DNA of 33,514 nt from Gemmatimonadota bacterium (lineage in GTDB: Bacteria > Gemmatimonadota > Gemmatimonadetes > JACCXV01 > JAHWKZ01): contig JBDHIC010000018.1 of assembly GCA_039589035.1 (NCBI GenBank), forward strand, positions 1 to 33,514, given 5' to 3'. Below are positions 3,687 through 33,514 of the stretch, piece by piece. Under the pieces are notes generated by a model. The model was not told the DNA's origin and ran no database searches. It saw nothing but the letters and a program-made list of their open reading frames with translations. The position numbers and the translations under genes are program-made. The first letter of the stretch is position 1, and every line of letters starts with the position of its first letter.

Positions 3687-4439
3687 ATGATGAACGATAG
3701 AGAACCGAGCGTCGACCGGGAACGCCGAATCAGCCGTTATGGCCGAGTAGCCTGGGCGTTTGTGACGCTGTTTGTTGTAGAGAGCATCGTCTTCGGGCTG
3801 TCGGTGCTACCGGCGGCGCTCTTCTGGGAATGGCATTTCAGCTGGACACTCTCGCCCCGGTGGTTGCGGGTGGTCGTTCTTGCGATGTCGTTTGTGCCAG
3901 CCTACATGCTCTTCGCGGTATCGCTCATGGTCCTCTCGGGTTGGGCCACGCGGATCACGGGGTGGCGGACTCCACCCAACGTCGAACTCAAGGTATCGGA
4001 CCTCGACTGGGCACTCCTCGATTGGGCCCGTTACATGGTATCGACTCATCTGGTGCGGATCTTCGCCGGCGTTCTGTTCCGATCGACTCCGGTGTGGACG
4101 ATGTATCACCGCTTGAACGGAGGGCGCATCGGTCACGGCGTCTACATCAACAGCATCTCGCTTACGGACCACAACTTGCTCGAGTTTGACGATCGCGTCG
4201 TGATCGGCTCCGACGTACATCTTTCGGGTCATACAGTCGAGGCTGGCGTGCTCAAGACCGCCCCGGTAAAACTCGGGCGCAACGTAACGATCGGCATCGG
4301 GAGCGTAGTCGGGATCGGCGTGGAAGTCGGGGCCGATGCGCAGGTTGGCGCGCTCAGCGTGGTACCGAAGTTCCGGAAGCTCGAGCCCGGCTCGGTCTAC
4401 GGTGGGGTTTCGATCAAACGTCTAAACGGCTCCGCCTGA
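3687..4439 (+). CDS. Membrane protein with a C-terminal hexapeptide-repeat (left-handed beta-helix) acyltransferase-like domain
   Basis: Two N-terminal hydrophobic segments, then GRIGHGVYIN, VVIGSDVHLSGH, VKLGRNVTIGIGSVV and VEVGADAQVGALSVV repeats. Start uncertain. Confidence 0.8.
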   Translation: MMNDREPSVDRERRISRYGRVAWAFVTLFVVESIVFGLSVLPAALFWEWHFSWTLSPRWLRVVVLAMSFVPAYMLFAVSLMVLSGWATRITGWRTPPNVELKVSDLDWALLDWARYMVSTHLVRIFAGVLFRSTPVWTMYHRLNGGRIGHGVYINSISLTDHNLLEFDDRVVIGSDVHLSGHTVEAGVLKTAPVKLGRNVTIGIGSVVGIGVEVGADAQVGALSVVPKFRKLEPGSVYGGVSIKRLNGSA

Positions 4440-7350: not shown

Positions 7351-7447
7351 GGACTGATCTCCGTTTGCGTGGACCCCATGGGCGCGGAGGTTAAACTAGA
7401 TCACGTCGATCGAAAAGCCGCGAGGGGTTCATCAGGGAGGCAAATCG

Positions 7448-8463
7448 ATGAAAATGCGTGCCGCCGTCCTCGAGGAGTTCGGCCAGCCGTTGGTTGTCCA
7501 GGATGTTGACCTGGCGCCCCCCAAGGTGGGGGAGGTGCTCGTCAAAGTACACGCTTGCGGCGTATGCCATACCGATCTCTACACCGCCAGCGGCGCTGAC
7601 CCCAGCGGGTACACTCCGTGTGTGCTTGGCCACGAAGGCGCCGGTGTCGTGACCCAGGTCGGGGAAGGGGTAACGCTCGTTCAGCCGGGCGACCACGTGA
7701 TCACGCTGTTCTCGCCCGAGTGTGGCAAGTGCATCCATTGTAAGAGCGGCAAGACCAACATCTGCTTGGCGATTCGCGAGCAGCAAGGGAAGGGTAGATC
7801 GCGCTCGCCAAGATCGATCCCGCGGCCAGCCTCGAGACGGTTTGTATGCTGGCGTGTGGAGCCACCACCGGGCTGGCGGCGGCGCTGTGGAAGACCGAGG
7901 TCGAAGCCGGGTCGACGTGCGCCGTTTTTGGTTGTGGAATGGTAGGGCTCGGAGCGGTGCTCGGGTGTGCGATGCAGGGTGCGAAGAGAGTCATCGCCGT
8001 CGACCTGTCGGAGAAACGTCTCGAGCTGGCCAGAGGGGCCGGCGCGACAGATACGATCGTGGCCGACCAGGATCCGGTGGACCGTATTCTGGAGATGACC
8101 GACGGCTTTGGCGCCGACTACACGTTTGAAGCGACCGGGCTGGTCCGAGTCATGGGCCAAGCGGTCGAAGCGGCGCGCATGGGATGGGGGACGTGCACCG
8201 TCCTTGGTGTCGCCGGCAAGGGTGAGGCGCTCGAGATCATCCCGCGCTTCTTGATCACCGGGCGCAAGGTCCAGGGTGGCAGCTTTGGCGGCGCACGTGG
8301 CCGGACGCACGTGCCCCAGCTGGTCGATCTATATCTGCAAGGCAAACTCGATCTGGATCCGTTCGTCTCGCATCGCCTGACCCTGGACCAAGTGAACGAG
8401 GGCTTTGAGTTGATGGAGGCTCAGGACGGAATCCGGTCGGTGATTGTGTTCGACGCCGCGTAA
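7448..8463 (+). pseudogene. Zn-dependent class III-like alcohol/formaldehyde dehydrogenase disrupted by an internal deletion and frameshift at about 7795
   Basis: The N-part (7448-7795) has CHTD, GHEGAG and CGKCIHC...NIC, and ends at IREQQGKG. The C-part resumes in another frame at 7798 ([25 protein letters not shown]...GCGMVG). The family segment PDGTTR...HxMGxSTFxEYTV is absent. Confidence 0.88.
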
Positions 8464-13400: not shown

Positions 13401-13496
13401 GTCGTGTACACGTTGTTGGCTGAAGCACGCGGCCGCGTAGGTGTTCGCTCTGGGGCTTCGGAATCGGTTCAGCCGGTTCCCGTGGAGGCAAAGTGA
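10416..13496 (+). CDS. RND efflux permease (AcrB/AcrD/AcrF family)
   Basis: 1026 aa; motifs CIQRPV, proton-relay GIVVDDAII, SLTPML, AAQFES, TKNSILLVE and RLRPILMT. Confidence 0.96.
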   Translation: MRLPEICIQRPVLASMMSATLVLFGIIGFTRLPVREFPDVDSPIVNVTTVLRGANPRVIESTVTDVLEEELSTIPGVRTLTSASSEQFSSITLEFTLDRDLEAAAQDVRDKVSRVRDRLPQEVEEPVVEKQDADAQPFYWLALSGENYDLLQLSDIGDRIVKNRLQSVPGVGRAQVFGERRYSMRVWLSPTEMASRGVTVQDVEAAIQSRNVEVPAGRIESDRREFTVRSLGELKTPEEFAGLTVASQNGQLIKLRDISRVELGPEDDRAILRFKSVSAVAIGVVRQSKSNLVDVSDRVRDELPAIQAALPPGVQLDTAFDTAVFVRRSIREAEETLILAGILVVLIIFVFLRNVRATIIPGLAIPTSIIAAFAVMFFFGFTINNFTLLALILSIGIVVDDAIIVMENAYRHQEELKEPPDLAAIRGTNEIKFAVIATTVALVAVFAPLLFLRGTIGRLFNEFGAAMIGAVVVSSFVALSLTPMLSAKILRVPKSHGKLFYVFERTFEHIAALYATSLAWAMRHRRGVIAVALATVLVAVGAFKMLKREFVPPEDRGWFMSIVVAPEGSSKEYTDGYQQQVERILGNTEDIEAYFSLVGWNGRVNSGIVFIRLADWDERDRDVQEIIAEIQPQFFMLPGVFAFANNPPAFGWQSPIQFVVRNPDFEALSAGLETFTNSARQIPGLVNVDTNLRVNKPELVVRYDRDRAEDLGVPIRDVSNTLQTMLGGREVSTFTRDNKLYDVIMQLEPEDRASPSDMRGLRVRGKDNQLISLDAVANVEEGIGPRQLNHYDRVRSFTLTGNMAPGFTLGEAIDQLRAVGDSVLPAGSTIALSGESRELEESGRTLYFVFLLALVIVFMVLAAQFESLVHPFTVLLSVPLAVTGALVMLLLAQSTLNLYSQIGMVLLIGLVTKNSILLVEYANRLMESGLEPVKAMLESGRIRLRPILMTAVATIMGAMPIALGIGAGSASRRPLGYAIVGGLVFSTALTLYLVPVVYTLLAEARGRVGVRSGASESVQPVPVEAK

Positions 13497-14806
13497 ACCG
13501 ATTTGGCATCGCGTTGGCGCTGCTGCTCGCCGCGCCCACAATCGCGACCGCTCAGGAAGCAGCTGGTCAGGAGTTCCCCGAGGTGACGCTGACTGAGGCG
13601 TTGCGGCGAGCAGCTTCGCTCGACCCCAACTACGTGGCGGCGCTCAACGAGGTCGGTGACGCCAATTGGCGACGAGTCGCCGCGTACTCAGCGTTTATCA
13701 CGCCGGCGGTGAGTTTTCAGTCGACTTCGACAAAGTTCAGCTCGGACATATTCAATGTCGGGACAAATCGTTTGACCGATCGCATCGTGGACGCGAATCT
13801 GACTGCCAGCTACGAGCTCTTTCGCGGCGGCGGAAAGTTCTTCGATCTCTGGAGCGCGAGGGCAGGGCTACGGAGCGCTCGCGCCAACGAGCGCCAGGCC
13901 CGGTTCGAGAGCGCGCTTCAGACCGAGTCCGACTACTACGTGGTCGTCGCGGAGAGAGAGTTGACCCGCGTCGCTTCGGGCCGCGTACGCCGTGCTGAGG
14001 AGCAGCTCTCTGTTGCGCGGGCCCGTGTCGTATCGGGGGCAGCGGTCCAATCCGACTCGCTGCAGCTGTTTCTCGAGCTGACCCGCGCCCAAGTCGATCT
14101 TCTGCGACAGGAAGCGAGTCTGCGGGTGTCACGGTACCAGCTCGGTCGCCGTATCGGAGCCGATGGACCTGTCAGCGCGGCGCCCCTCGATACGCTACCG
14201 GCGCCAGCACTGCCGGTATCCGAGGCGGACGCCGTTGCCGAGGCGGTGCAGGGGAGCCCGCGCGTCGTTCAGGCGCGCGCCGATGCCGTCGCGGCGAGCT
14301 CGGCTCTCAAGTCGGTTTGGTCGCAGTATCTGCCGAGCTTCACCTTGTTTGCCCGGTATACCGGGTTCGACGAGTCGTTCTTTCCGGACGCGACCGAGCG
14401 AACGTTGTTCGGGTTTTCGCTCGATATCCCGATCTGGGACAATGCCCAGCGCGAGGTGCGGCTGTCGGAGGCACGCACGACGAAAGCGATTACCCGAGCA
14501 CTACGAGATGATACGGAGCAAGCTGTCGCTCGCGATGTCGTCGAAGCGTATCAGTTGTACGAGACCGCTCGCGCGGCAGCTCAGTTAGCGACGACCGCGG
14601 TGGTTGTAGCGCGTGAGAACCTGCGCGTGCAGCAAGAGCGATACCGAGCTGGGGCGACGACGATCATCGACCTGGTAACCGCCCAGGTCGACTTGGCCGA
14701 CGCCGAAGCGGGTGTGGTCCAGGCGCGGCAACAAACCCGACTCGCGCTGGCCGGTCTAGAGGCGATCCTCGGTCGGCGGCTGTTCCCGAACCGGGCGGCA
14801 CCATGA
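13493..14806 (+). CDS. TolC-family outer membrane efflux protein
   Basis: Signal peptide; two OEP repeats (YLPSFTL, LDIPIWD, ERYRAGATTIIDLVTAQ); GTGA overlap with the RND stop. Confidence 0.92.
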   Translation: MNRFGIALALLLAAPTIATAQEAAGQEFPEVTLTEALRRAASLDPNYVAALNEVGDANWRRVAAYSAFITPAVSFQSTSTKFSSDIFNVGTNRLTDRIVDANLTASYELFRGGGKFFDLWSARAGLRSARANERQARFESALQTESDYYVVVAERELTRVASGRVRRAEEQLSVARARVVSGAAVQSDSLQLFLELTRAQVDLLRQEASLRVSRYQLGRRIGADGPVSAAPLDTLPAPALPVSEADAVAEAVQGSPRVVQARADAVAASSALKSVWSQYLPSFTLFARYTGFDESFFPDATERTLFGFSLDIPIWDNAQREVRLSEARTTKAITRALRDDTEQAVARDVVEAYQLYETARAAAQLATTAVVVARENLRVQQERYRAGATTIIDLVTAQVDLADAEAGVVQARQQTRLALAGLEAILGRRLFPNRAAP

Positions 14807-18403: not shown

Positions 18404-20830
18404 ATGCAGGAGTACGAAAAGCTCGGCGTCTTCTATCTGGGCCAGCTCTACGATCTGGGCGCGAAGGAGCGGTTGGATCCGCTGCTGCTCTACGATTCCC
18501 GCGATCTCGTCACGCATGCGGTGTGCGTAGGGATGACCGGGAGCGGCAAGACCGGCCTGTGCGTCGGGCTGCTCGAGGAAGCGGCGCTGGATGGGATACC
18601 GGCGATCGTCATCGATCCCAAGGGTGACCTCGGCAATCTGCTGCTTACGTTCCCAAAGCTTCGCGCCTCCGACTTTCGACCGTGGATCAACGAAGGAGAC
18701 GCCAGTCGGAAGGGTAAGACACCCGATGAGTACGCCGCCGCTCAGGCCCAGTTGTGGTCCAACGGGCTCGCCGGCTGGGGGCAGGATGGTGGGCGGATTC
18801 AGCGCTTGCGTGAAGCCGCTGATTTCACGATCTACACGCCGGGCAGCACCGCCGGCCGACCTTTGTCGATCCTCAAGTCGTTCGCCGCGCCCGACGCGTC
18901 GTTGCGCGACGACCCTGAACTGCTGGGCGACAAGATCGAGACCACCGTCACGGGGCTTCTGGGGTTGCTCGGCATCGAGGCCGACCCGATCCAGAGCCGC
19001 GAGCACATCCTGATCTCGACCATTCTGAAGGAGGCTTGGCAGGCCGGACGGAGCTTGGACTTGCCGGCGCTCATTCAAGCCATCCAGCAACCGCCGGTGA
19101 GCCGCATCGGCGTAATGGAGGTCGACTCGTTCTACCCCGCCAACGAGCGATACGAGCTGGCGCTCAAGCTGAACAACCTGATCGCTTCGCCTGGGTTCGA
19201 GAGCTGGCTGACCGGCGAGCCGCTAAGCATCGACAATCTCCTCTACACCGACGCGGGAAAACCCAGGGTCTCGATCGTTTCGATAGCGCACCTCAGCGAG
19301 CCCGAGCGGATGTTCTTTGTCTCGCTGCTGCTCAACGAAACGGTCGGGTGGATGCGCACCCAGTCGGGGACGACGAGCCTGCGAGCGTTGATCTATATGG
19401 ACGAGATCTTTGGCTACTTCCCACCGGTCGCCAACCCGCCGTCGAAGAAGCCGCTTCTGACGATGCTCAAGCAGGCCCGCGCATACGGTGTCGGTGTCGT
19501 GTTAGCAACGCAAAACCCGGTCGACCTCGACTACAAGGGGTTATCGAACACCGGCACGTGGTTTATCGGTCGTCTGCAGACCGAGCGTGACAAGGCTCGC
19601 GTGTTGGAAGGGTTGGAAGGTGCTTCGGCCGGTACCGGGGCGGCGTTCGACAAGAACGAGATGGACGAGACGCTGGCCGGACTAGGCAAACGAGTCTTCC
19701 TCATGAACGACGTTCATGACAGTGAACCGGCGGTGTTCCAAACTCGCTGGGTCATGTCGTACCTGCGGGGTCCGCTGACGCGCAATGAGATAAAGCGATT
19801 GATCGGTGACGTGGAGCCTGCCGTTGCTGAAATGAAGGCCCCCGCTCCCGCCGAGCCATCTGCACCGGCTGCGGCTTCGCGGCCCGTTCTGCCACCCAAA
19901 GTGCCCGAGCACTTCGTGCCCGTTCGGCAGCTCGCTCCCGCTGACGCCGAGCTCCATTACGATCCCACGCTGCTCTCTACAGCGCAGTACCGGTGCAGTA
20001 ACCGCAAGGCCGGGGTGAGCGTGACCGATGAGATCACCGTGCTCGTTCCGATGACCTCGGCGCCCATGGCGATCGATTGGAACGATGTCGCACGGGTCGA
20101 CATCGATGCCGGAGATCTCGGAACGGCACCTGAGGATGGCACCGTCTCATACGGCGAGGTGCCGGCAGCCGGCACCGACTCCAAGAGCTATACGGCGTGG
20201 AAGCGCGAGTGGAAGGATTGGGTCTATCGATCGCAGGCAATCAAGCTCTGGCACAGCCCGACGTTCAAGGACTACTCCGAGCCGGGGGAGAGCGAGCGCG
20301 ATTTTCGGATTCGGCTTCAGCAGCTGGCCCGCGAGCGGCGAGACGAAGAGAAGGAGAAGCTGACTAAGAAGTACACGCCGAAGATCGCGCGGATCGAAGA
20401 GCGAATCCGCAAGGCGCAACAGGCGGTCGCTCGCGAGGGAGAGCAATCGAAGCAACAAAAGCTCCAGACCGCGATCTCGGTTGGGACCACCGTGCTGGGC
20501 TCGATTCTGGGCCGAAAGACTTTGAGTCGCACCTCGCTCGGTCGGGCCACGACCGCCGCGCGTGGCGTAGGCCGCACGATGAAGGAGGCCGGCGACATCG
20601 GCCGTGCGAAGGAGACGGTCGCCGCCAAACAACAGGAGCTGGAAGAGCTCGACGCCGAATTCCGCGAAGAGATCGAAGCGCTCGAGGATAGGTTCGACCC
20701 GATGGCTGAGGAGCTCGAGGAGGTCGAAGTTCGGCCGCTCAAAAAAGATATCGCCGTCGGTCTAGTCAGCTTGGCCTGGGTTCCGTGCTGGGAGGACGCG
20801 CGGGGCAACCGCACCCCCGCATGGGAGTGA
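18404..20830 (+). CDS. HerA/FtsK-like (DUF87-type) ATPase with a long C-terminal coiled coil
   Basis: THAVCVGMTGSGKT Walker A, VIDPKGD, IYMDE Walker B and QARAYGVGVVLATQNP; E/K/R-rich helical tail. Confidence 0.88.
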   Translation: MQEYEKLGVFYLGQLYDLGAKERLDPLLLYDSRDLVTHAVCVGMTGSGKTGLCVGLLEEAALDGIPAIVIDPKGDLGNLLLTFPKLRASDFRPWINEGDASRKGKTPDEYAAAQAQLWSNGLAGWGQDGGRIQRLREAADFTIYTPGSTAGRPLSILKSFAAPDASLRDDPELLGDKIETTVTGLLGLLGIEADPIQSREHILISTILKEAWQAGRSLDLPALIQAIQQPPVSRIGVMEVDSFYPANERYELALKLNNLIASPGFESWLTGEPLSIDNLLYTDAGKPRVSIVSIAHLSEPERMFFVSLLLNETVGWMRTQSGTTSLRALIYMDEIFGYFPPVANPPSKKPLLTMLKQARAYGVGVVLATQNPVDLDYKGLSNTGTWFIGRLQTERDKARVLEGLEGASAGTGAAFDKNEMDETLAGLGKRVFLMNDVHDSEPAVFQTRWVMSYLRGPLTRNEIKRLIGDVEPAVAEMKAPAPAEPSAPAAASRPVLPPKVPEHFVPVRQLAPADAELHYDPTLLSTAQYRCSNRKAGVSVTDEITVLVPMTSAPMAIDWNDVARVDIDAGDLGTAPEDGTVSYGEVPAAGTDSKSYTAWKREWKDWVYRSQAIKLWHSPTFKDYSEPGESERDFRIRLQQLARERRDEEKEKLTKKYTPKIARIEERIRKAQQAVAREGEQSKQQKLQTAISVGTTVLGSILGRKTLSRTSLGRATTAARGVGRTMKEAGDIGRAKETVAAKQQELEELDAEFREEIEALEDRFDPMAEELEEVEVRPLKKDIAVGLVSLAWVPCWEDARGNRTPAWE

Positions 20831-25685: not shown

Positions 25686-26300
25686 TTAGCCCCCATAACG
25701 CCTCACGATCAACGCACCAAAGACGAGGTGCAAGCCACCGAAACCGATCGCCAGCAGCGGGTTCGCCCAACTGGCTGGTGCTGCCAATGCGATGAGACCC
25801 AAGACCATGAACGCGGCACCCATGATCGGCACCGATCGGACCGAGAACATGCCGCCGGTAACCACGCCAACACCGTATAGCAGCAACCATAACCCGGGAA
25901 TCGGGTCCACGATTTCAGCCCGATAGAGTGCGGCGGTCAGCGCGATGGCGGCGATCACCGGTGGCGCAAGTCCGAGAAGGAAGCGTCGACCGACACCACG
26001 CGACAACCGTTCACCCTGGTGCCTGGCCTTCTGGTGCATGAAAACGCCCCCGATCGTCGCCGCCAGTAGCGCATCCAGAACCCAGAGCGGGAGCCACTGG
26101 TCGGCGAGACCGGGGGAAGAGACGAGTGCGGCCGTTGCCAGAGCCGAGACACCCATTACGATCCCACCCCAACCGGGCACAGAGGTGAAAGCGCGCGACG
26201 ATTCCATCGTCTCGCGGATGTACTCGAGGTTGTCGATCGCCCTCGTGTGGAGGGCGACCGGCTCATTGGGCTCAGACCGCAGAGGCTCGGATGCCGACAT
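25686..26300 (-). CDS. Multi-pass membrane protein (about six TMs), partner of the wHTH regulator
   Basis: N-terminal helix ALHTRAIDNLEYIRETME, WLLLYG and C-terminal GFGGLHLVFG. The ATG at 26300 lies 7 nt after a -10 box. Confidence 0.82.
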   Translation of the reverse strand: MSASEPLRSEPNEPVALHTRAIDNLEYIRETMESSRAFTSVPGWGGIVMGVSALATAALVSSPGLADQWLPLWVLDALLAATIGGVFMHQKARHQGERLSRGVGRRFLLGLAPPVIAAIALTAALYRAEIVDPIPGLWLLLYGVGVVTGGMFSVRSVPIMGAAFMVLGLIALAAPASWANPLLAIGFGGLHLVFGALIVRRYGG

Positions 26301-26361
26301 GACCAGTAGCCTACCAGAATAATACTTTATTGTCAAGAACTTGATGATGCAAAGTGACTTT
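26301..26361 (-). promoter_or_regulatory. Sigma70 promoter (probably leaderless) with ACTT/AAGT operator repeats
   Basis: Minus strand: TTGACA (26336-26331), 17-nt spacer, TAGGCT (26313-26308), 7 nt, ATG, with no RBS. ACTTTGCATCATCAAGT (26355-26339) and further AAAGT/ACTTT half-sites flank the -35 box. Confidence 0.78.
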
Positions 26362-26547
26362 CTGTCCTCAGCGGACTGGGTCCTGGCCGACTCGATGCGG
26401 TTCGAAACTTGCAATTTGGGGACAATCAGATCCGACTAGGAACCGAGAAATCGTGCCCCGTGCCTGAGGATCAACGAGATTACATCGCATGGTCCGTTGC
26501 ACCCAGAGCGGAATACTAATCCTCGGACAAGGGGTTGCGTACACTAA

Positions 26548-27716
26548 ATGAAGACCAAGTATTCGATAATCGGGCTCGGCAAACTAGGCGCTAGCATGGC
26601 CGCTGGTATCGCCAGCCGTGGGTTTGAAGTGATCGGTGTAGACGTGAACGAGAATGCGGTGCGCTTGCTGAACGACGGCCACGCGCCGGCGCAGGAGACC
26701 GGGCTAGATGACCTGGTTGCAGCGAACAAAGAGCGGCTCAAGGGGACGATGAGCCATCGCGAGGCGGTACTTGGGTCGAACGTCTCGTTCGTGATCGTCC
26801 CCACGCCGAGCAATCAGGAGGGCATGACGAGCACCGTATTGCCGGGTGCGACACGCTATGGACTGCTGCCAGTACTGGAAGAAGCATCGGGGAAGAAGTG
26901 CGGTCCAGACTTTGGATTGTGCTACACGCCGGAGTTCATTGCCTTGGGAAGCGTGATCAGGGACTTCCTCAATCCGGATTTTACGCTGTTGGGGCAATTC
27001 GATGATCGCTGTGGAGAGAGGCTCGAAAAGTGCTTCGATGAGATCCTAGAGAGTCCGGCACCGTGCATGCGCATGAGTCTCGAGAATGCTGAACTGACAA
27101 AGCTGTGCGTCAATACTTACGTGACGACAAAGATCACGTTCGCCAACATGCTGGCCGAGATCTGCGAGATGATCCCGGGAGGCAACGTCGATGTGGTTTC
27201 GGACGCGCTGGGGCTCGACAAGCGAATCGGCCGGCGGTATCTCACCGGGGCACTGAGTCGAAACTGGCGGGTAAGTTCAACCCCGGAGACACCGTCGCCA
27301 TTCTGGGTCTGTCGTACAAGCCGTGGTCTCATATCGTAGAGGAGTCCCAGGCTGTTTATTTGGCCAAAGAGCTGTCGTCTGCAGGCGCACGCGTGGTTGG
27401 CTACGACCCGTTAGCGAACGACATGGCCCGTTCCGAGCTTCGCGACAAGGCGGTAATCGTTGATTCGATCGAAGACTGCGTTGCCGATGCCGACTGCATT
27501 CTGGTGTGCAATCCAGATCCAGAATTCAAGGCTCTGACGCCTGAGATGGCGCTGGGCGATAAGGGATCGGTCACGGTGGTCGACTTCTGGCGTTTCCTGA
27601 GATCGTCGCTCGAGGGTCATCCCGGTATCGATTACCGGGCGTACGGGACCAGCATCGACGACGATGCCAACGCCGAGGCGATGAAGGAGCTGTGGGGCGA
27701 GGGCGGCAACGCCTAG
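26548..27716 (+). pseudogene. UDP-glucose/GDP-mannose dehydrogenase family gene with two internal deletions, the second frameshifting
   Basis: IIGLGKLG, IVPTPS, STVLPG, PEFIALG, AELTKL and DKRIG are in one frame; AILGLSYKP...EESQ, YDP and VVDFWR are in another frame from about 27249. PTPS is only 6 residues from STVLPG, and the catalytic GxGGxCxPxD motif is absent. Confidence 0.88.
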
Positions 27717-27724
27717 GTGCGGTT

Positions 27725-28591
27725 TTGAGCCAGCAAGAGAGCCCCATGATCACGATCGTAACGCCCACCTACAACAGCGTTCGTACGGTGCGGGATACGA
27801 TCGAGAGTGTGCTGACGCAGGACTACCCAAACCTCGAGCATATCGTGATGGATGGCGGGTCCACAGACGGTACCCTCGATATTTTGGCAGACTATCCGCA
27901 TCTCACGTGGGAATCCGAGAAGGACGAGGGACACTACCACGCAATGCAAAAGGGCGCCGAGCTGGCGACCGGGGACGTGCTCGCGATCCTCAACTCGGAC
28001 GATTGTTACCGACCTGGAACACTTCACAAGGTCGCCGCTGCCTTTGATGCCCACCCCGAGTGGGACGCTCTTTTTGGTGACATTCGGTTCGTCGATTCGG
28101 ACGGAAATGAGATCTATCGACGGGAAGAAGCCAAGTACGACTATGATGTTCTCCGTTTCGGGGTCAATATCGTGAGCGACCAGACGCTGTTCTATCGACA
28201 AGAGACGTTTCATCGGGTCGGTGGATTGCGGTACGAGAAGTTCCGCAACTGTTGCGATTACGATATGGTCCTGCGCTTGGGCAAAAACGGCTTCAGGGTC
28301 GGTCACGTCAACGCAATCTTCACTAACTACCGAGTTCATGAGTTCGGACAGACTGCCGATAAGCGAATCGCCGAGAACATGCGCAGAGAAGTGAGACTTA
28401 TAAGAGATGAACATGGAGTGCCGCACGGGTTTCCGTATTACATCCTGATGGTTAGCCACAAGATCAAGCGGCAGTTGCAGAAGCTCTTCCTGCGGGGCAA
28501 GGTCGATCTCGTTTCGGGTCGCTGGAAACTCCGAAAGCACATGCGAGACCAAACGACGTTCTCTTCCAACGTGGGTCTTGACGAGCTGTAG
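27725..28591 (+). CDS. Family 2 glycosyltransferase (WcaE-like)
   Basis: Motifs ITIVTPTYNS, IESVLTQDYP, DGGSTDGT, SEKDEG, LNSDD and DYD. Start is TTG 27725 or ATG 27746. Confidence 0.92.
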   Translation: MSQQESPMITIVTPTYNSVRTVRDTIESVLTQDYPNLEHIVMDGGSTDGTLDILADYPHLTWESEKDEGHYHAMQKGAELATGDVLAILNSDDCYRPGTLHKVAAAFDAHPEWDALFGDIRFVDSDGNEIYRREEAKYDYDVLRFGVNIVSDQTLFYRQETFHRVGGLRYEKFRNCCDYDMVLRLGKNGFRVGHVNAIFTNYRVHEFGQTADKRIAENMRREVRLIRDEHGVPHGFPYYILMVSHKIKRQLQKLFLRGKVDLVSGRWKLRKHMRDQTTFSSNVGLDEL

Positions 28592-28627
28592 GTCACGGCG
28601 CGTACGTTCAACGCGCCACACGGGTAT

Positions 28628-28704
28628 GGGCGCATAGCTCAGGGGTTCAGAGCACCTGCCTTACAAGCAGGGGGTCCGTGGTTCGAATCCACGTGCGCCC
28701 ACCA
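28628..28704 (+). tRNA. tRNA-Val(TAC), intact, CCA encoded
   Basis: Acceptor GGGCGCA/TGCGCCC, D-stem GCTC/GAGC, anticodon stem CCTGC/GCAGG with loop CTTACAA, T-arm CGTGG-TTCGAAT-CCACG and ACCA end. Confidence 0.97.
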
Positions 28705-28783
28705 GTAATAAGCACAAGCAGAACATGCGGTTGGGGAAAATCGGCAGAAACGCCGGAGTAGGGGGGTGTGCTAGTAAGTGTGC

Positions 28784-29191
28784 AGCATCGCGTCGGCGGT
28801 CGGATTCATCGCCCTCGCCGGTGTAGCAACCGAGATCGGCGTCGTGATGCTCGTCTATCTAGATGAAGCACACGAGCGACATCGCCGTGACGGGCGTCTG
28901 CGGGATACGGCCGACGTCATCGATGCCGTGCAGGAGGGAGCGGGGGAGCGGGTGAGGCCGGTCATGATGACGGTCGTCGCCGATATAGGCGGTCTGTTGC
29001 CGATTCTCTGGGGCCACGGCACGGGCGCCAGCGTGATGCAGCGCATCGCCGCACCTATGGTGGGTGGAATGTTGTCCGCCACCGTGCTGGTGCTGCTCGT
29101 GGTTCCGACGCTTTACTCCGTCTGGAAGGAGCGACAGTTGCGAGGATCGATGGGGGTTGGCGCGCCCTCATCGTCAACTGAAGGGGTGTAA
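28784..29191 (+). pseudogene. C-terminal fragment (last about 135 aa) of a CusA/SilA-type heavy-metal RND pump
   Basis: Motifs SIASAVGFIALAGVATEIGVVMLVYL, ERVRPVMMT, GLLPILWGHGTGASVMQRIAAPMVGG; the family is about 1040 aa and the rest is absent. Confidence 0.9.
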
Positions 29192-29194
29192 CGA

Positions 29195-30121
29195 ATGAGT
29201 AGCCAGCACATGGGACACGGGATGGCAGGGCATGCCGCGGTCAATGCGCGAGCGTTGAGAGTCTCCGCGTGGCTTACCGGGGTCTACTTCGTCGTCGAGC
29301 TGCTGATCGGCCTGTATACCGGGTCGGTGGCCGTTATTTCCGACGCCATGCACACGTTCTCGGCCGTTGGAGGAGTGGTGCTGGCGATCGTCGCGGCTCG
29401 GATCGCCAGACGCCCGGCCGACGAGCGCCGCACGTTCGGATCGTTCCGGGCGGAGATCATCGGTGCGCTCCTGAACGGCGTCTTTCTGTTCGTGATGGCG
29501 ATTGTCGTACTCGTAATGGGATACCTGCGCCTACGGGCGCCGATACACCTGCCAACCACTCCGATGCTCTTCGCTGCCGCGGGCGGCATCATCACGGAGT
29601 TGATCTCGATCCGACTCCTCTACGCGGGCCAGAAAGGGGATCTCAACATCAAGGGGGCTTTCTGGCACATCGTCCAGACGTTCGTGGGCAGTATTCTGAT
29701 CATCGTGGCCGCGCTCGTGATCCGGCTGACCGGGTTTCTGTCGATCGACCCGCTTCTCGGTATGGCGTTCGGTCTTGTGCTCCTGTATGCGTCCTGGGGG
29801 ATCATGCGTGACGCCGTAGGAATCCTCATGGAAGGCGTGCCTCCTGATCTCGAGGTGCGGAGCGTAGTCGATCGGCTCAAAGAGCTGAGCAAAGTCGACG
29901 ACGTTCATCACGTCCACGCGTGGATCCTGACGTCCAACAAGACGGTTTTCTCAGCGCACCTCAGGACCGACGACATCGCTGCGGCTCCGGATGTGCTCGA
30001 TGCCGCCCACGATCTGTTGCGACGGGAGTTCGGATTCCATTTGTCCACGCTGCAGGTAGAGACGAGATGCCTTGACGAAGATCACGCGAGGGATCTCGAC
30101 TTTCTCAGACGGGGGGAGTGA
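29195..30121 (+). CDS. Cation diffusion facilitator (CzcD/ZitB-like) transporter
   Basis: His-containing N-terminus, SDAMH, RTFGSFRAEIIGALLNG, DLNIKGAFWH, ILMEGVP, VHHVHAW and TLQVE. Confidence 0.92.
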   Translation: MSSQHMGHGMAGHAAVNARALRVSAWLTGVYFVVELLIGLYTGSVAVISDAMHTFSAVGGVVLAIVAARIARRPADERRTFGSFRAEIIGALLNGVFLFVMAIVVLVMGYLRLRAPIHLPTTPMLFAAAGGIITELISIRLLYAGQKGDLNIKGAFWHIVQTFVGSILIIVAALVIRLTGFLSIDPLLGMAFGLVLLYASWGIMRDAVGILMEGVPPDLEVRSVVDRLKELSKVDDVHHVHAWILTSNKTVFSAHLRTDDIAAAPDVLDAAHDLLRREFGFHLSTLQVETRCLDEDHARDLDFLRRGE

Positions 30122-30149
30122 CGGACGGAGAATCGTCTCCCCTGACCGC

Positions 30150-30198
30150 GCTTGACATGCAGGAGGTCACGGGTTCGAATCCAGTGCCGCCCGCCATA
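30150..30198 (+). repeat. 3' half of a tRNA-Val(GAC), copy 1 (att-like, two substitutions relative to copy 2)
   Basis: GCTTGACATGCAGGAGGTCACGGGTTCGAATCCAGTGCCGCCCGCCATA; 47 of 49 nt identical to 32666-32714; no 5' half upstream. Confidence 0.92.
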
Positions 30199-30202
30199 AC
30201 AA

Positions 30203-31198
30203 TCAGCAAGGTCTTGCCACGACGATGCTAAGCGGCGAAGTGGTGGGGACGATCTCCTCGACCGCAAAGCCAGCCTGATGCAGCAAGTCGCGAAATTCGG
30301 CCGCCGTACGTTCCTGCCCTGCGGCCATCACCATCATGTTCAAGTCCATCCACTTGCCCATGTCGAATTCGGGCGTCTCCGGGATCACCGACTCCACTAC
30401 CATGAGCCGAGCGTCTGGTTTCGCGACCTTTCGCACGTTGCTCAGAAGGGCGATCGATTCCTCATCCGACCAATCGTGAAGAATCCAGCGCATCACGTAG
30501 GCATCAGCTTGGACGGAAACTTCCTCAAAAAAATCTCCGCCGACACGCTCGACCCGACCATCCTCCGGCGCGTGCGCAACGACCGCCGGCAGATCAAAAA
30601 GAATGCCCTGGCAAGAAGGATGCGAGTCTAGGATGCTCAACAGTTGCGATCCTATTCCACCCCCGAGATCGGCGATCACAGGGTATCGGCTCCAATCGAA
30701 GGCCTCAGCCACTGCCGGACTGATCGAGGCACTCAGGTCCCGCATCGCCTCGTTGAAAATCGTGTAGGTCTGAGGCTTCGATTGCATGTGCTCCCAAATG
30801 CTCTGGCCCGTCACCTGATCGAAGCCTGGACGACCATTTTTCAGGGACAGCATCAATCCTCGCCACCCCTCGAATACCGGAGCTCCGGCACAGAGCGTAA
30901 TTCGAATCCAAGCCCAATTTGAGCCCGGCAGTCTGCGACGGAGACATTCACTCGCGGGTGTGTTGCCGAATACTCCGGGCGATGTCTGAGTGAATATCCC
31001 GGTGCTCTCCAGGGCCCGCAGCATCCGAAACAGGCTCGGTCCGTGGGTATCGGTGCGTTCCGCAAGAACGTCAATGTGTAACGGGCCATCGGCCAGCACA
31101 TCGGCAAGTTCGAGTTGTGCTGCCGCACCGACGCAGCAACTCTGCCAGTGATTGTTGACGAGCCCTAGAATTTGCTCTTCAGGCGTAGCTGCGCTCAT
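30203..31198 (-). CDS. SAM-dependent O-methyltransferase (Methyltransf_2 with dimerisation domain)
   Basis: Motifs AAAQLELADVL, FNEAM, DLGGGIG, FDLP, GGDFF, ILHDW and DLNMM...ERT; GGAAGG RBS before ATG 31198. Confidence 0.93.
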   Translation of the reverse strand: MSAATPEEQILGLVNNHWQSCCVGAAAQLELADVLADGPLHIDVLAERTDTHGPSLFRMLRALESTGIFTQTSPGVFGNTPASECLRRRLPGSNWAWIRITLCAGAPVFEGWRGLMLSLKNGRPGFDQVTGQSIWEHMQSKPQTYTIFNEAMRDLSASISPAVAEAFDWSRYPVIADLGGGIGSQLLSILDSHPSCQGILFDLPAVVAHAPEDGRVERVGGDFFEEVSVQADAYVMRWILHDWSDEESIALLSNVRKVAKPDARLMVVESVIPETPEFDMGKWMDLNMMVMAAGQERTAAEFRDLLHQAGFAVEEIVPTTSPLSIVVARPC

Positions 31199-31277
31199 CG
31201 TCCAATTCCTTCCCTTGTTATGGTACCGCAGACATGTCGCCGCACGCCGTTTCCCGCGCCGTTTCCCCCGAGGCGGC

Positions 31278-32240
31278 TCATTTCGCGACCGCGTTTGGGG
31301 CTGGGGCGGAGAGCGCTGGGAGCTTGGCATCGATCTCCGGACGTGCGGACTCGAGCCACGGGGGAAGGACGAGTTTCTCGCCAAGGTGAGCGAGCTCCTC
31401 GTCGGCGGTGAAGCCCGGCCCTTCGGTGGCGAGCTCGAAGAGAACGCCACCCGGTTCCTTGAAGTAGACGGAGTGGAACCAGAAGCGGTCGATCACCGGA
31501 GTCGGTGTCACGTGCTTCTCAACCTGGGAGCGGACGTCGAGTAGCTCGGCGTCGTCCTCGACTTGGAAAGCGAGGTGATGAATCGATCCGACTCCCCAGG
31601 CTCCACGCCGGTCCATCGGGGCTTCGGTGAGGTCGAGCCACTTCCCGGAGCAACCGTCGTCGAGCACCCAACGCTCCCAGCCATGCTCGGATGCCTGTCG
31701 CCGGAACCCCAGGGCTTTCTCGAGAAAGCTCGTCGTGCCGCGTAGATCCCGCTCGCGCAGCCGGGCCCCGTCGAGGCCGCGGATCTGACGCTCGGGCGTG
31801 ACCTCGCTCTCTTCCCACGGAGTGAACGATCGACGGACGGCGGACTCGCTTTCGACGAGGGCGACGTGCATGCCGTGTGGATCCTGGAAGGGCAAGGTCC
31901 GCTCGCCGAAACGAGCGGTGACCTCGCCGACCGGAACTCCATAATGCTCGAGCCTCGCGAACCAGTAATCCAGTGTGCCGGGCGGCACCGCGAGAGAAAC
32001 CTCCGGCGCTGTGCCGTGACCGCGACGTGGCGGTGCGAGTTGTGGCCATGGGAAGAATGTCAGGTCCGTCCCCGGGCGCCCTTCGGCGTCGGCGTAGAAG
32101 AGGTGATATGTGCCGGGATCGTCCTGGTTGACGCTCTTCTTGACCAGGCGCATACCGAGCACGCCGGCGTAGAAATCGAGATTCTCCTGCGCCGGGCCCG
32201 AGATGGCGGTGACGTGGTGGAGCCCGTGAACGCTCTTTAT
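31278..32240 (-). CDS. Ring-cleaving dioxygenase / two-domain glyoxalase (MhqO-like) with ATA at the expected start
   Basis: Frame extends upstream of the called GTG to IKSVHGLHHVTAISGPAQENLDFYAGVLGMRLVKKSVNQDDPGTYHLFY; also IHHLAF, DRFWFHSVYFKEPGGVLFELAT and LPPWLE. Confidence 0.88.
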   Translation of the reverse strand: MKSVHGLHHVTAISGPAQENLDFYAGVLGMRLVKKSVNQDDPGTYHLFYADAEGRPGTDLTFFPWPQLAPPRRGHGTAPEVSLAVPPGTLDYWFARLEHYGVPVGEVTARFGERTLPFQDPHGMHVALVESESAVRRSFTPWEESEVTPERQIRGLDGARLRERDLRGTTSFLEKALGFRRQASEHGWERWVLDDGCSGKWLDLTEAPMDRRGAWGVGSIHHLAFQVEDDAELLDVRSQVEKHVTPTPVIDRFWFHSVYFKEPGGVLFELATEGPGFTADEELAHLGEKLVLPPWLESARPEIDAKLPALSAPAPNAVAK

Positions 32241-32663
32241 AGTTGTCCTTCCGGTTCGACGTTGGCCGACGGTGCCCGTTTCGGGAGCTTACTCGTTACT
32301 GCTGGCGAGTGCGAAATAGCTCGTCATGAGGCTCCGGGCTATTGAAGCAGCCGGGCTCAAGGTAGACGTTCAATTTGAGCAGTACGCTGGCGACGGCAAC
32401 GCGTCCTCATGGATAGGATCCGCGCCACTTGACGGGATAGTCCTCCTTACTATGGCTGCGATCACGCTATCAATAAGCGGCTATCGCGGTGGGAGTGGCT
32501 AGTCCCGGGCGCCCTGCCTTCTTTCGTTGCTGTGTGAGCGAGCAGATCCCACCAGTGCCAACAACAGTGACAAAATGCTTGGTTGGGCTTAGGGCTAGGC
32601 GTCGAAACAGACGTGCACTTTGTTGCCAGCTGGCGTCAGCGATTGCCAGTTGACGGTCGCCCG

Positions 32664-32714
32664 CTGCTTGACATGCAGGAGGTCACTGGTTCGAATCCAG
32701 TGCCGCCCACCATA
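32664..32714 (+). repeat. 3' half of a tRNA-Val(GAC), copy 2 (att-like)
   Basis: CTGC-TTGACAT-GCAGG-AGGTC-ACTGG-TTCGAAT-CCAGT-GCCGCCC-ACCA; perfect T-arm; no D-arm or 5' acceptor strand upstream. Confidence 0.93.
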
Positions 32715-32886
32715 TCTAACTACGAGAGAAGCAAGTGATTGGGTTGTTGCGGTCCATTCGTTTGACCGCCCAACGCGTCTTGTGGTAGGCTCGATGAGAA
32801 AGAGAACAAACTTCTCTCTGGCGAGTGGTCAAAGGAGGCTGGGTGTTTGACCCCGACGAGTTGAGGCCGAGGACAAGGCAGAGCGA

Positions 32887-33514
32887 TTGAGCATCGTTCC
32901 CGGGGCGGGAGTCAGCGAGGAGCTGCGTAGGAAACGCAAGCCGGCGCGAATTGTAGCAGCTTTGCTTGTTGGCGGGTTGGGGCTGACTCCGGCTTCGGGT
33001 GTCGCACAAACCCCGGCGGAAGGCGAACGCGTTGTCATCGAGAGCGCCGGATGGGAGCTCGTGGGCGATCTCGTACTTCCCAATTCGGCGGAGCCGCTTC
33101 CCGCCGTTCTGCTGCTCAACCAGGCGGCCGGCAACCGCACTGCCTACGCCAAGCTGGCGCAGCATTTGGCCGATCGCGGGATGGCGTCACTTCGTCTCGA
33201 CCTCCGCGGGCACGGTGAAAGCACGAACCTGGGGCGTTTCGTGCCGGGCGATAGTCTCACGGCGTCGTTTATCTGGGATTCAGAGGCGGACGTCATCGCG
33301 GCTCGCCGATATCTCGCATCCCTCGAAGCGATCGACGGGGAGCGGATCGCGATCGTCGGGGCCAGTTACAGCGGAGAGGAAATGGCAGAGGCGGGTCGGT
33401 TGACCACGTTCGCTCGAGCTTATGTGGCCTTGTCGCCTGGATCTTTTAGCGACGAGTCGATCGTGGGAATCGACACGAGCGGTATCCCCTGGCTCTTCAT
33501 CGCATCTCGGGAAG
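32887..33514 (+). CDS. Exported alpha/beta hydrolase, 3'-truncated by the window edge (not in the ORF track)
   Basis: Manual translation gives RRKRKPARIVAALLVGGLGL (signal-like), PLPAVLLLN, LRLDLRGHGES and IDGERIAIVGASYSG. Open to the end of the window; start uncertain (TTG 32887). Confidence 0.85.
   Translation, partial: MSIVPGAGVSEELRRKRKPARIVAALLVGGLGLTPASGVAQTPAEGERVVIESAGWELVGDLVLPNSAEPLPAVLLLNQAAGNRTAYAKLAQHLADRGMASLRLDLRGHGESTNLGRFVPGDSLTASFIWDSEADVIAARRYLASLEAIDGERIAIVGASYSGEEMAEAGRLTTFARAYVALSPGSFSDESIVGIDTSGIPWLFIASRE

Follow-up and report, generated by a model that had tools for sequence, protein, structure and literature searches.

How did displaced pieces of a transfer RNA (tRNA) gene come to separate small blocks of unrelated genes downstream of an intact tRNA gene, with no integrase among them? 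The question arises at the 3′ end of contig JBDHIC010000018.1 (assembly GCA_039589035.1) from a Gemmatimonadota bacterium. The whole contig, 33,514 nucleotides long, is called the window below; it is contig C18 of the metagenome-assembled genome (MAG) G000, which has 294 contigs and is 90% complete. G000 was compared with the seven other genomes of its genus (together G000-G007, G002 being the best assembled with 30 contigs), with 31 genomes of the family and, in the search for integrase homologues, with 35 genomes of the order. The tRNA genes were called with ARAGORN and Rfam RF00005, and the cargo genes were identified with Pfam and NCBIfam profiles on translations of open reading frames (ORFs). 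On balance we favour, with some reserve, the reading that small non-autonomous cassettes were stacked here by a tyrosine integrase that acts in trans on the anticodon loop, and that later deletions trimmed them.

The intact gene is a tRNA-Val(TAC) on the forward strand (28628..28704; ARAGORN, and Rfam RF00005 with 72 bits), which is likely the attL-side anchor of a composite islet. Two displaced 3′ parts of a tRNA gene follow on the same strand, half 1 at 30150..30198 and half 2 at 32664..32714, both recognised by alignment and by comparison within the genus. A preliminary description of this DNA, made from the letters alone, had reported an intact tRNA followed by cargo blocks separated by tRNA halves, and ARAGORN, Rfam and Pfam returned the gene order that it gave. 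The direct repeats it had noted, 30150-30198 and 32666-32714, are indeed co-oriented and identical at 47 of 49 positions (96%) from the anticodon stem to the CCA end, with longest exact shared runs of only about 21 nt. The 38-nt core of the repeat, allowing up to three mismatches, was found twice in the window, a count that none of 100 shuffles reached (mean 0.00). The units thus delimited are 1445 and 2465 nt long.

Both halves had been assigned to tRNA-Val. That assignment stands, but the isoacceptor had gone unnoticed: both carry the anticodon loop TTGACAT, which reads anticodon GAC, and they therefore derive from tRNA-Val(GAC) and not from the neighbouring TAC gene, to whose 3′ part they are 71% identical. 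Half 2 shows no differences from the native tRNA-Val(GAC) of G002 between the anticodon stem and CCA. Half 1 has two changes relative to the native gene, one of which disrupts the T stem. The halves do begin at the anticodon arm as described (CTGC-TTGACAT in copy 2, GC-TTGACAT in copy 1), but the CCGC said to be common just upstream is one base off register between them. Intact tRNA-Val(GAC) was not found among the assembled contigs of G000. A 95-nt tRNA-Val(gac) called by ARAGORN at G000:C8:17471-17565 was rejected as a false positive, lying in what reads as coding sequence. In relatives the gene is located about 6 kb past tRNA-Ser(GCT) and about 8 kb past tRNA-Ser(TGA), and since their contigs often end at it, an assembly gap most probably explains its absence from G000. 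ARAGORN called no tRNA at any displaced half, with or without the arm upstream of it, and Rfam gave only weak sub-threshold tRNA matches over arm end and half. An outward promoter was also considered, with TTGACA in the loop and TCGAAT 17 nt further on; a consensus scan gave no match and the idea was dropped.

The position of the crossover is consistent among relatives. Displaced copies in G000-G007 and in three other genera are all common from TTGACAT to CCA, and the 2-4 bases before TTGACAT vary (CTGC, as in the tRNA, GCGC, TGGA or TCGC), as is expected if these bases come from the element and strands are exchanged in the anticodon loop. This supports the earlier suggestion that the halves are attR scars of an anticodon-loop tyrosine integrase, and we regard them with high confidence as attR-type junctions of tyrosine-integrase insertion. 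At each, the native 3′ part of the gene, from the anticodon loop to CCA, would have been displaced and joined at its 5′ side to the end of the inserted element.

Such sites recur throughout the genus. At up to three mismatches the 38-nt core matched in 18 of the 31 family genomes, including all eight of the genus (3, 1, 6, 6, 2, 1, 3 and 2 matches) and 10 of the 23 others (1 or 2 matches each). Among the Val-derived loci that were fetched (G001:C178 and G003:C186 being omitted as identical to other rows), 16 intervals between Val-derived sites were counted on nine contigs of G000, G002, G003 and G004. All are co-oriented and range between 128 and 3989 nt, seven of them being shorter than 2 kb. 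The clearest array is on G002:C24, where four fragments lie behind an intact tRNA-Val(GAC), all in its orientation, at spacings of 739, 2150, 1829 and 2045 nt; the cargo there either has no assigned function or encodes repeat proteins of the PD40 and TSP3 kinds, and an integrase is absent. A TrkA-like gene lies directly 3′ of tRNA-Val(GAC) in G004 and is separated from it by four units in G002, which indicates insertion or deletion polymorphism at the tRNA. For most halves the identity to the native tRNA is 96-100%, against a divergence of about 13% in core DNA between species, so the insertion events appear to be recent. We also noted that in G002, G003 and G004 the TrkA-like gene is next to Val(GAC) sites, and that in G007 (C31 5585-7700, locus L040) a TAC-type half with a partial arm is found directly 5′ of a TrkA-like gene, 1.6 kb past a tRNA-His/tRNA-Lys pair.

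Within G000, 42 nt of copy 2 recur without change on contig C77, and C40 has the conserved arm described below followed by a 16-nt stub of a half. The possibility that only two copies exist and that the cargo is fixed is thereby set aside, the cargo too varying between species. Further halves had been anticipated beyond position 33514. The contig ends there, but contig C76, the likely continuation, does hold a third half. The overlap of C76 with the window is end to end and covers the final 332 nt at 96.7% identity, and G006:C95 is collinear with both C18 and C76, for which reasons we regard C76 as continuing the window, or as a closely related strain variant of the continuation. Past the remainder of a hydrolase gene it has a leader resembling a c-di-GMP riboswitch, an ORF of 255 aa, a terminator, the conserved arm and a tRNA-Val(TAC) half (C76:6010-6059, reverse strand), which is 100% identical to the 3′ 49-50 nt of that tRNA and lies about 1.8 kb beyond 33514. 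The composite islet is about 6.7 kb long, from the intact tRNA-Val(TAC) to its own displaced half on C76, with the two GAC halves inside. No syntenic match in G002 or G001 was found for the sequence beyond the C76 half, where the islet's native right flank would lie. Displaced 3′ parts of other tRNAs were also detected in G000, namely two of tRNA-Gln(TTG) and one each of tRNA-Arg(ACG) and tRNA-Pro (C122:4577-4621, C104:217-260, C45:356-400 and C40:8418-8449), so stacking at tRNA genes in this genome extends beyond tRNA-Val.

Ten displaced halves of the genus, seven of GAC type and three of TAC type, have a common upstream flank. Alignment of 400-nt flanks delimited a block of about 125-135 nt, here called arm A, which is preceded by a terminator-like GC hairpin and T run and lies directly 5′ of GAC-type and TAC-type halves alike. 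Reading of the alignment shows in it a pair of direct GTGCTAGT repeats and a pair of CGGCA-N3-TGCCG palindromes. Arm A was found at 26 places in six of the 31 family genomes, all within the genus; the copies are 82-96% identical and the cargo behind each is unrelated. A scan for the arm-A pattern recovered two short contigs from JGI metagenomes, holding only arm A and a TAC half, and no loci among viral contigs. In the window only the first 19 nt of arm A are present (28765-28783, forward strand; BLAST 19/19), fused to a fragment of cusA. They end a flank 3′ of the tRNA (28705..28783, forward strand) that is kept in G002 and G003 (G002:C11, G003:C148). X6 contigs diverge from the window at 28783 and continue there into arm A, not into cusA, which indicates a deletion at this point in the window. 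A shorter 28-nt arm, labelled class B, connects the stop codon upstream to half 1 (30122..30149, forward strand). Its last 13-20 nt or so recur 5′ of halves that likewise begin with GCGC-TTGACAT, in G010:C162 (60 nt, 95%) and in G001:C178/G003:C108 (70 nt, 87%). A conserved left-end arm was rejected, as similarity 3′ of the halves was weak and patchy and came partly from a riboswitch leader or neighbouring genes. Rfam c-di-GMP-I-GGC matches were found inside cassette units at G002:C24 (L015) 13442-13553 and 19151-19265, G004:C106 (L030) 3737-3849 and G000:C76 ~7423-7548. Their scores ran from 58.6 to 68.5 bits; of those set against the gathering score of 59, two exceed it and one falls slightly short. 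The matches lie 5′ of genes with no assigned function, and a similar 110-nt leader is present at many places in the genus.

The absence of an integrase, claimed earlier for the window, was confirmed with PF00589 in six-frame translation (E ≤ 0.001): there were no matches on C18, C76, C77 or C40, and none in the nine contigs with the 16 intervals. G000 as a whole has two PF00589 matches (C117 and C17; five candidates scored) and no match to PF00239 (Resolvase) or PF07508 (Recombinase). The two look like XerC and XerD, and one appears, from reading of the translations, to lie between TrmFO-like and HslV/HslU-like ORFs. The total is likewise two in each of G002, G003, G005 and G007, and 30 of the 31 family genomes have matches of equal strength, the exception being G012 (55% complete), with a sole match at E 6.3e-8. 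Recombination of the Xer/dif type was weighed by eye against a dif sequence and dropped. A different enzyme is present on G004:C5. It is 388 aa long, combines the domains Arm-DNA-bind_3 and Phage_integrase, and has its end 75 nt away from an arm A whose TAC-type core is decayed. This P4-type integrase is a candidate for the helper type. Its only close homologue in the 35 order genomes, 60% identical, is in G016, with a TAC-like half about 225 nt away (an unpublished genome; the depositors' permission is needed before this observation is published). Viral contigs gave only segments 25-29% identical to the G004 enzyme, and no helper was found in them; the enzyme itself scores far under integron-integrase cut-offs.

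Under the cassette reading, units of 0.1-4 kb would be stacked site-specifically, each made up of one or two genes together with an element-side arm and a tRNA core, in many cases also a terminator, and none with an integrase of its own. An integrase exchanging strands in the anticodon loop would insert the units and possibly mobilise them again. It could be encoded elsewhere or in some strains only, the P4-like type of G004 being the candidate. Deletions would later have trimmed the units and left the cusA stub, the 19-nt arm stub and the truncated halves.

Exchange of blocks between species is also seen in the comparison of G000 with G006. Their core DNA is 87% identical over 11.5 kb, and a block comprising the dioxygenase gene, its upstream region and half 2 (31265..32712, forward strand) is 99.2% identical in G006:C178. 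Both flanks of that block in G006:C178 differ from the window, and the flank there matches G000:C77 at only 91.8%. The hydrolase gene is 96% identical in G006:C95, where it lies about 1.9 kb from a tRNA-Gln half. Sharing with G003 is harder to interpret. Two of its contigs are 100% identical to foreign ones (C186 to the window over 2274 nt, C108 to G001:C178 over 4320 nt), with a core only about 81-86% identical to those of G000 and G001, which makes cross-binning among co-occurring relatives real. The G003 bin seems, to judge from these sequences, to mix two populations, and the mosaic identity within the single contig G006:C178 is the better evidence of exchange. Besides these contigs, G003 contains an 83% version of the window locus that is its own, and two intact tRNA-Val(GAC) genes.

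Several observations weigh against the cassette reading. Part of the apparent block sharing may be cross-binning, and all compared genomes are MAGs. Integrase-bearing mobile elements are often omitted from bins, and G000 is only 90% complete. An integrase adjoins an arm in just one of the eight genus genomes, and there the core is decayed. Neither window half has arm A, half 1 having the 28-nt arm and half 2 a private one that is otherwise seen only in G006. Decay is evident in the cusA fragment, in the arm stub and in the truncated halves on C40 and C77. In G000 and G002 the TAC locus holds GAC-type halves, and conversely the GAC locus of G003 holds a TAC-type arm fragment; as the two anticodon loops differ, simple insertion fails to explain this, and composite units may have moved whole, or homologous recombination may have occurred between arms. 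Finally, assembled public contigs from four runs of four studies, compared with positions 26000-33514, contained no unit-skipping joint, and neither the circle of about 2.5 kb nor the excision junction proposed earlier was seen in them; this objection is weak because such contigs drop rare forms and say nothing about mobility.

The preliminary description had left the choice between eroded tandem islands and a cassette-like array. The evidence leans towards the array without settling the matter, and the first alternative, though possible, seems to us unlikely. It supposes that full-size integrase-bearing elements entered at tRNA-Val, that their integrases and most of their genes were deleted, and that inert scars remain. 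The signs of decay just listed would be expected from such a history, as would the 29-34-nt fragments in G002 and G004, the two decay mutations of half 1 and the lack of excision products in public contigs, and a classical integrase-bearing island of about 6 kb does exist at tRNA-Val(GAC) in G008:C46, its integrase being unrelated to the G004 enzyme. However, none of the 16 intervals keeps a remnant detectable with PF00589, and the packing of the units is tight: between the CDF and methyltransferase genes no ORF of 50 aa or more is listed. A 130-nt arm has been kept at 82-96% identity behind unrelated cargo, and the near-native state of most halves against the core divergence points to recent events whose content differs by species.

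That passive halves and arms were shuffled by homologous recombination after uptake of foreign island DNA, with no site-specific enzyme at work today, is improbable as a full account. It would accommodate the GAC-type halves at the TAC locus and the TAC-type arm fragment at the GAC locus, the presence of the TrkA-like gene beside a TAC half in G007 and beside GAC sites in three other genomes, and the further block borders that lie off the halves (29112, ~31256-31265 and 32817). Repeats of 50-180 nt are short substrates for it, though, and the origin of the halves, their common start in the anticodon loop and their single orientation are left unexplained. Shuffling can act on top of cassette stacking and need not replace it. 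Very improbable is an assembly or binning artefact, with the contig a chimera joined at the shared 49-nt repeat and the array absent from any one genome: the MAG is fragmented, no listed piece of an independent public contig from the four runs crosses half 2 and relatives' contigs often end at tRNA-Val or at halves, but an independent contig of run X1 spans 29112-30360 over half 1, G006:C178 confirms the junction of the dioxygenase block with half 2, the five-site array of G002 sits within a 151-kb contig, and the exact runs shared by the window halves are only about 21 nt long.

Several known systems come close to these arrays. Islander requires an integrase for each island in a tRNA gene and a length of 2-200 kb (PMC4383910). 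The arrays resemble the islands described there in their intact tRNA with co-oriented displaced 3′ fragments, in an identity from anticodon to 3′ end that marks the anticodon-centred class of sites, and in the stacking of several islands at one tRNA gene (PMC4383910). They differ from them in that integrases are present in none of the 16 intervals, 7 of which are under 2 kb, and in that some halves lie at the locus of an isoacceptor other than their own. The pairing of a cognate tRNA gene with its fragment, as in PMC4383910, is clear in G002:C24; in G000 the GAC gene is unassembled and the TAC half is on C76. The cis-mobilizable elements (CIMEs) of streptococci, where site-specific accretion is also described, are, according to PMC5704250, decayed integrative and conjugative elements (ICEs) or integrative and mobilizable elements (IMEs) which are moved with a resident functional ICE. 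Like CIMEs as portrayed there, the units keep attL and attR, have no integration genes that we could find (no search was aimed at transfer genes) and stand in tandem at the 3′ end of a target gene; they differ in that no ICE or IME was seen beside any array, that units hold one or two genes, and that many carry one dedicated arm.

Tycheposons of Prochlorococcus themselves encode a recombinase, of the tyrosine or the large serine type, and frequently a replication module as well (10.1101/2020.12.28.424599). Both systems involve small genomes with flexible genes at few tRNA genes, tandem elements split by partial tRNAs, partial tRNAs scattered through the islands, and niche cargo including metal homeostasis. 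The units described here are without recombinase or replication module, and the phylum and the type of integrase differ. Overall, the structural definition of CIMEs fits the arrays, and the integrase by which Islander islands and tycheposons are recognised is lacking. From CIMEs themselves the units are set apart by their size, by an arm common to two isoacceptor targets and by the phylum.

The arrays also recall integrons: in both, one- or two-gene units stand in a row, each terminated by a recombination site, and the recombinase is not part of them. The arrays differ in having no intI, attI or attC, in that their sites are tRNA-derived with an arm, and in that the P4-type candidate does not adjoin the start of an array. 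One could speculate, rather doubtfully, that this is a distributed form of integron-like capture, in which minimal cassettes, made of cargo, a terminator, a 130-nt arm and a core that mimics a tRNA, would be captured at several tRNA genes, cut out as circles and inserted anew, and would pass from species to species and from one tRNA-Val locus to the other. A P4-type integrase would do this, present in a minority of cells only or on a transient helper element. By analogy, and with as much doubt, the tRNA gene might then take the role of attI and the arm with its half that of attC.

If the cassette reading is correct, small-genome Gemmatimonadota of sediments would keep much of their flexible gene pool as cassette stacks anchored at tRNA genes, the pool comprising metal efflux, enzymes that modify small molecules and genes controlled by c-di-GMP riboswitches. 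The logic by which islands are built in Prochlorococcus and in streptococcal CIMEs would extend to another phylum in a more minimal form, and island finders that require an integrase miss such units. If the units are inert scars, they are an ordinary record of past insertions.

The cargo of the window is as follows. The first gene fragment (28778..29191, forward strand; Pfam ACR_tran, TIGR00914) encodes the C-terminal part of a CusA/CzcA heavy-metal resistance-nodulation-division (RND) pump, about 120 of about 1050 residues. It covers ACR_tran profile positions 915-1019 of 1021 (E 2.4e-24) and positions 931-1041 of 1051 of TIGR00914, scoring far under the whole-protein cut-off of the latter, and is a deletion scar. 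The cargo proper of unit 1 is a cation diffusion facilitator (CDF) metal efflux transporter (29195..30121, forward strand; Pfam Cation_efflux and ZT_dimer), with 223.8 bits to TIGR01297, over its cut-off. Half 1 is tightly flanked by stop codons, as had been stated: the CDF stop ends at 30121, 28 nt 5′ of the half, and the stop of an S-adenosylmethionine-dependent O-methyltransferase on the reverse strand starts at 30203, 4 nt 3′ of it. The methyltransferase gene (30203..31201, start codon inferred; Pfam Methyltransf_2, E 1.8e-49, and Dimerisation) is followed by one for a two-domain protein of the glyoxalase/extradiol-dioxygenase fold (31278..32162, reverse strand). The latter matches Pfam Glyoxalase in two stretches, on the in-frame translation of 31278-32240, and gives a match to catechol 2,3-dioxygenase that is weak and under the cut-off. 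Beyond half 2, an alpha/beta hydrolase gene (32887..33514, forward strand; Pfam) is interrupted by the contig end. Base composition was discarded as a mark of the islet, its GC content of 0.565-0.643 not being distinct from the 0.578-0.657 of upstream DNA.

Two groups of minor observations concern other loci. Rows of three tandem tyrosine recombinase genes were found on G001:C207, G004:C108 and G045:C250. They are unrelated to the arrays, and their layout is presumably that of the elements known as 'recombinase in trio'. Upstream of the intact tRNA in the window, a UDP-glucose/GDP-mannose dehydrogenase gene (26548-27716) is represented by two overlapping ORFs of 263 and 203 aa. Relative to it, G002, G003 and an X5 contig have 85 nt more at about 26823, and G002 and G003:C186 have 126 nt more at 27255, so the gene is probably broken or differently built in G000. 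This gene and that of a GT2 glycosyltransferase 5′ of the tRNA (region 26342-28626) are absent from G001 and G004. In these two genomes the counterpart of the gene at 25686-26414 adjoins tRNA-Val(TAC), which shows that the 5′ side of the tRNA is variable as well.

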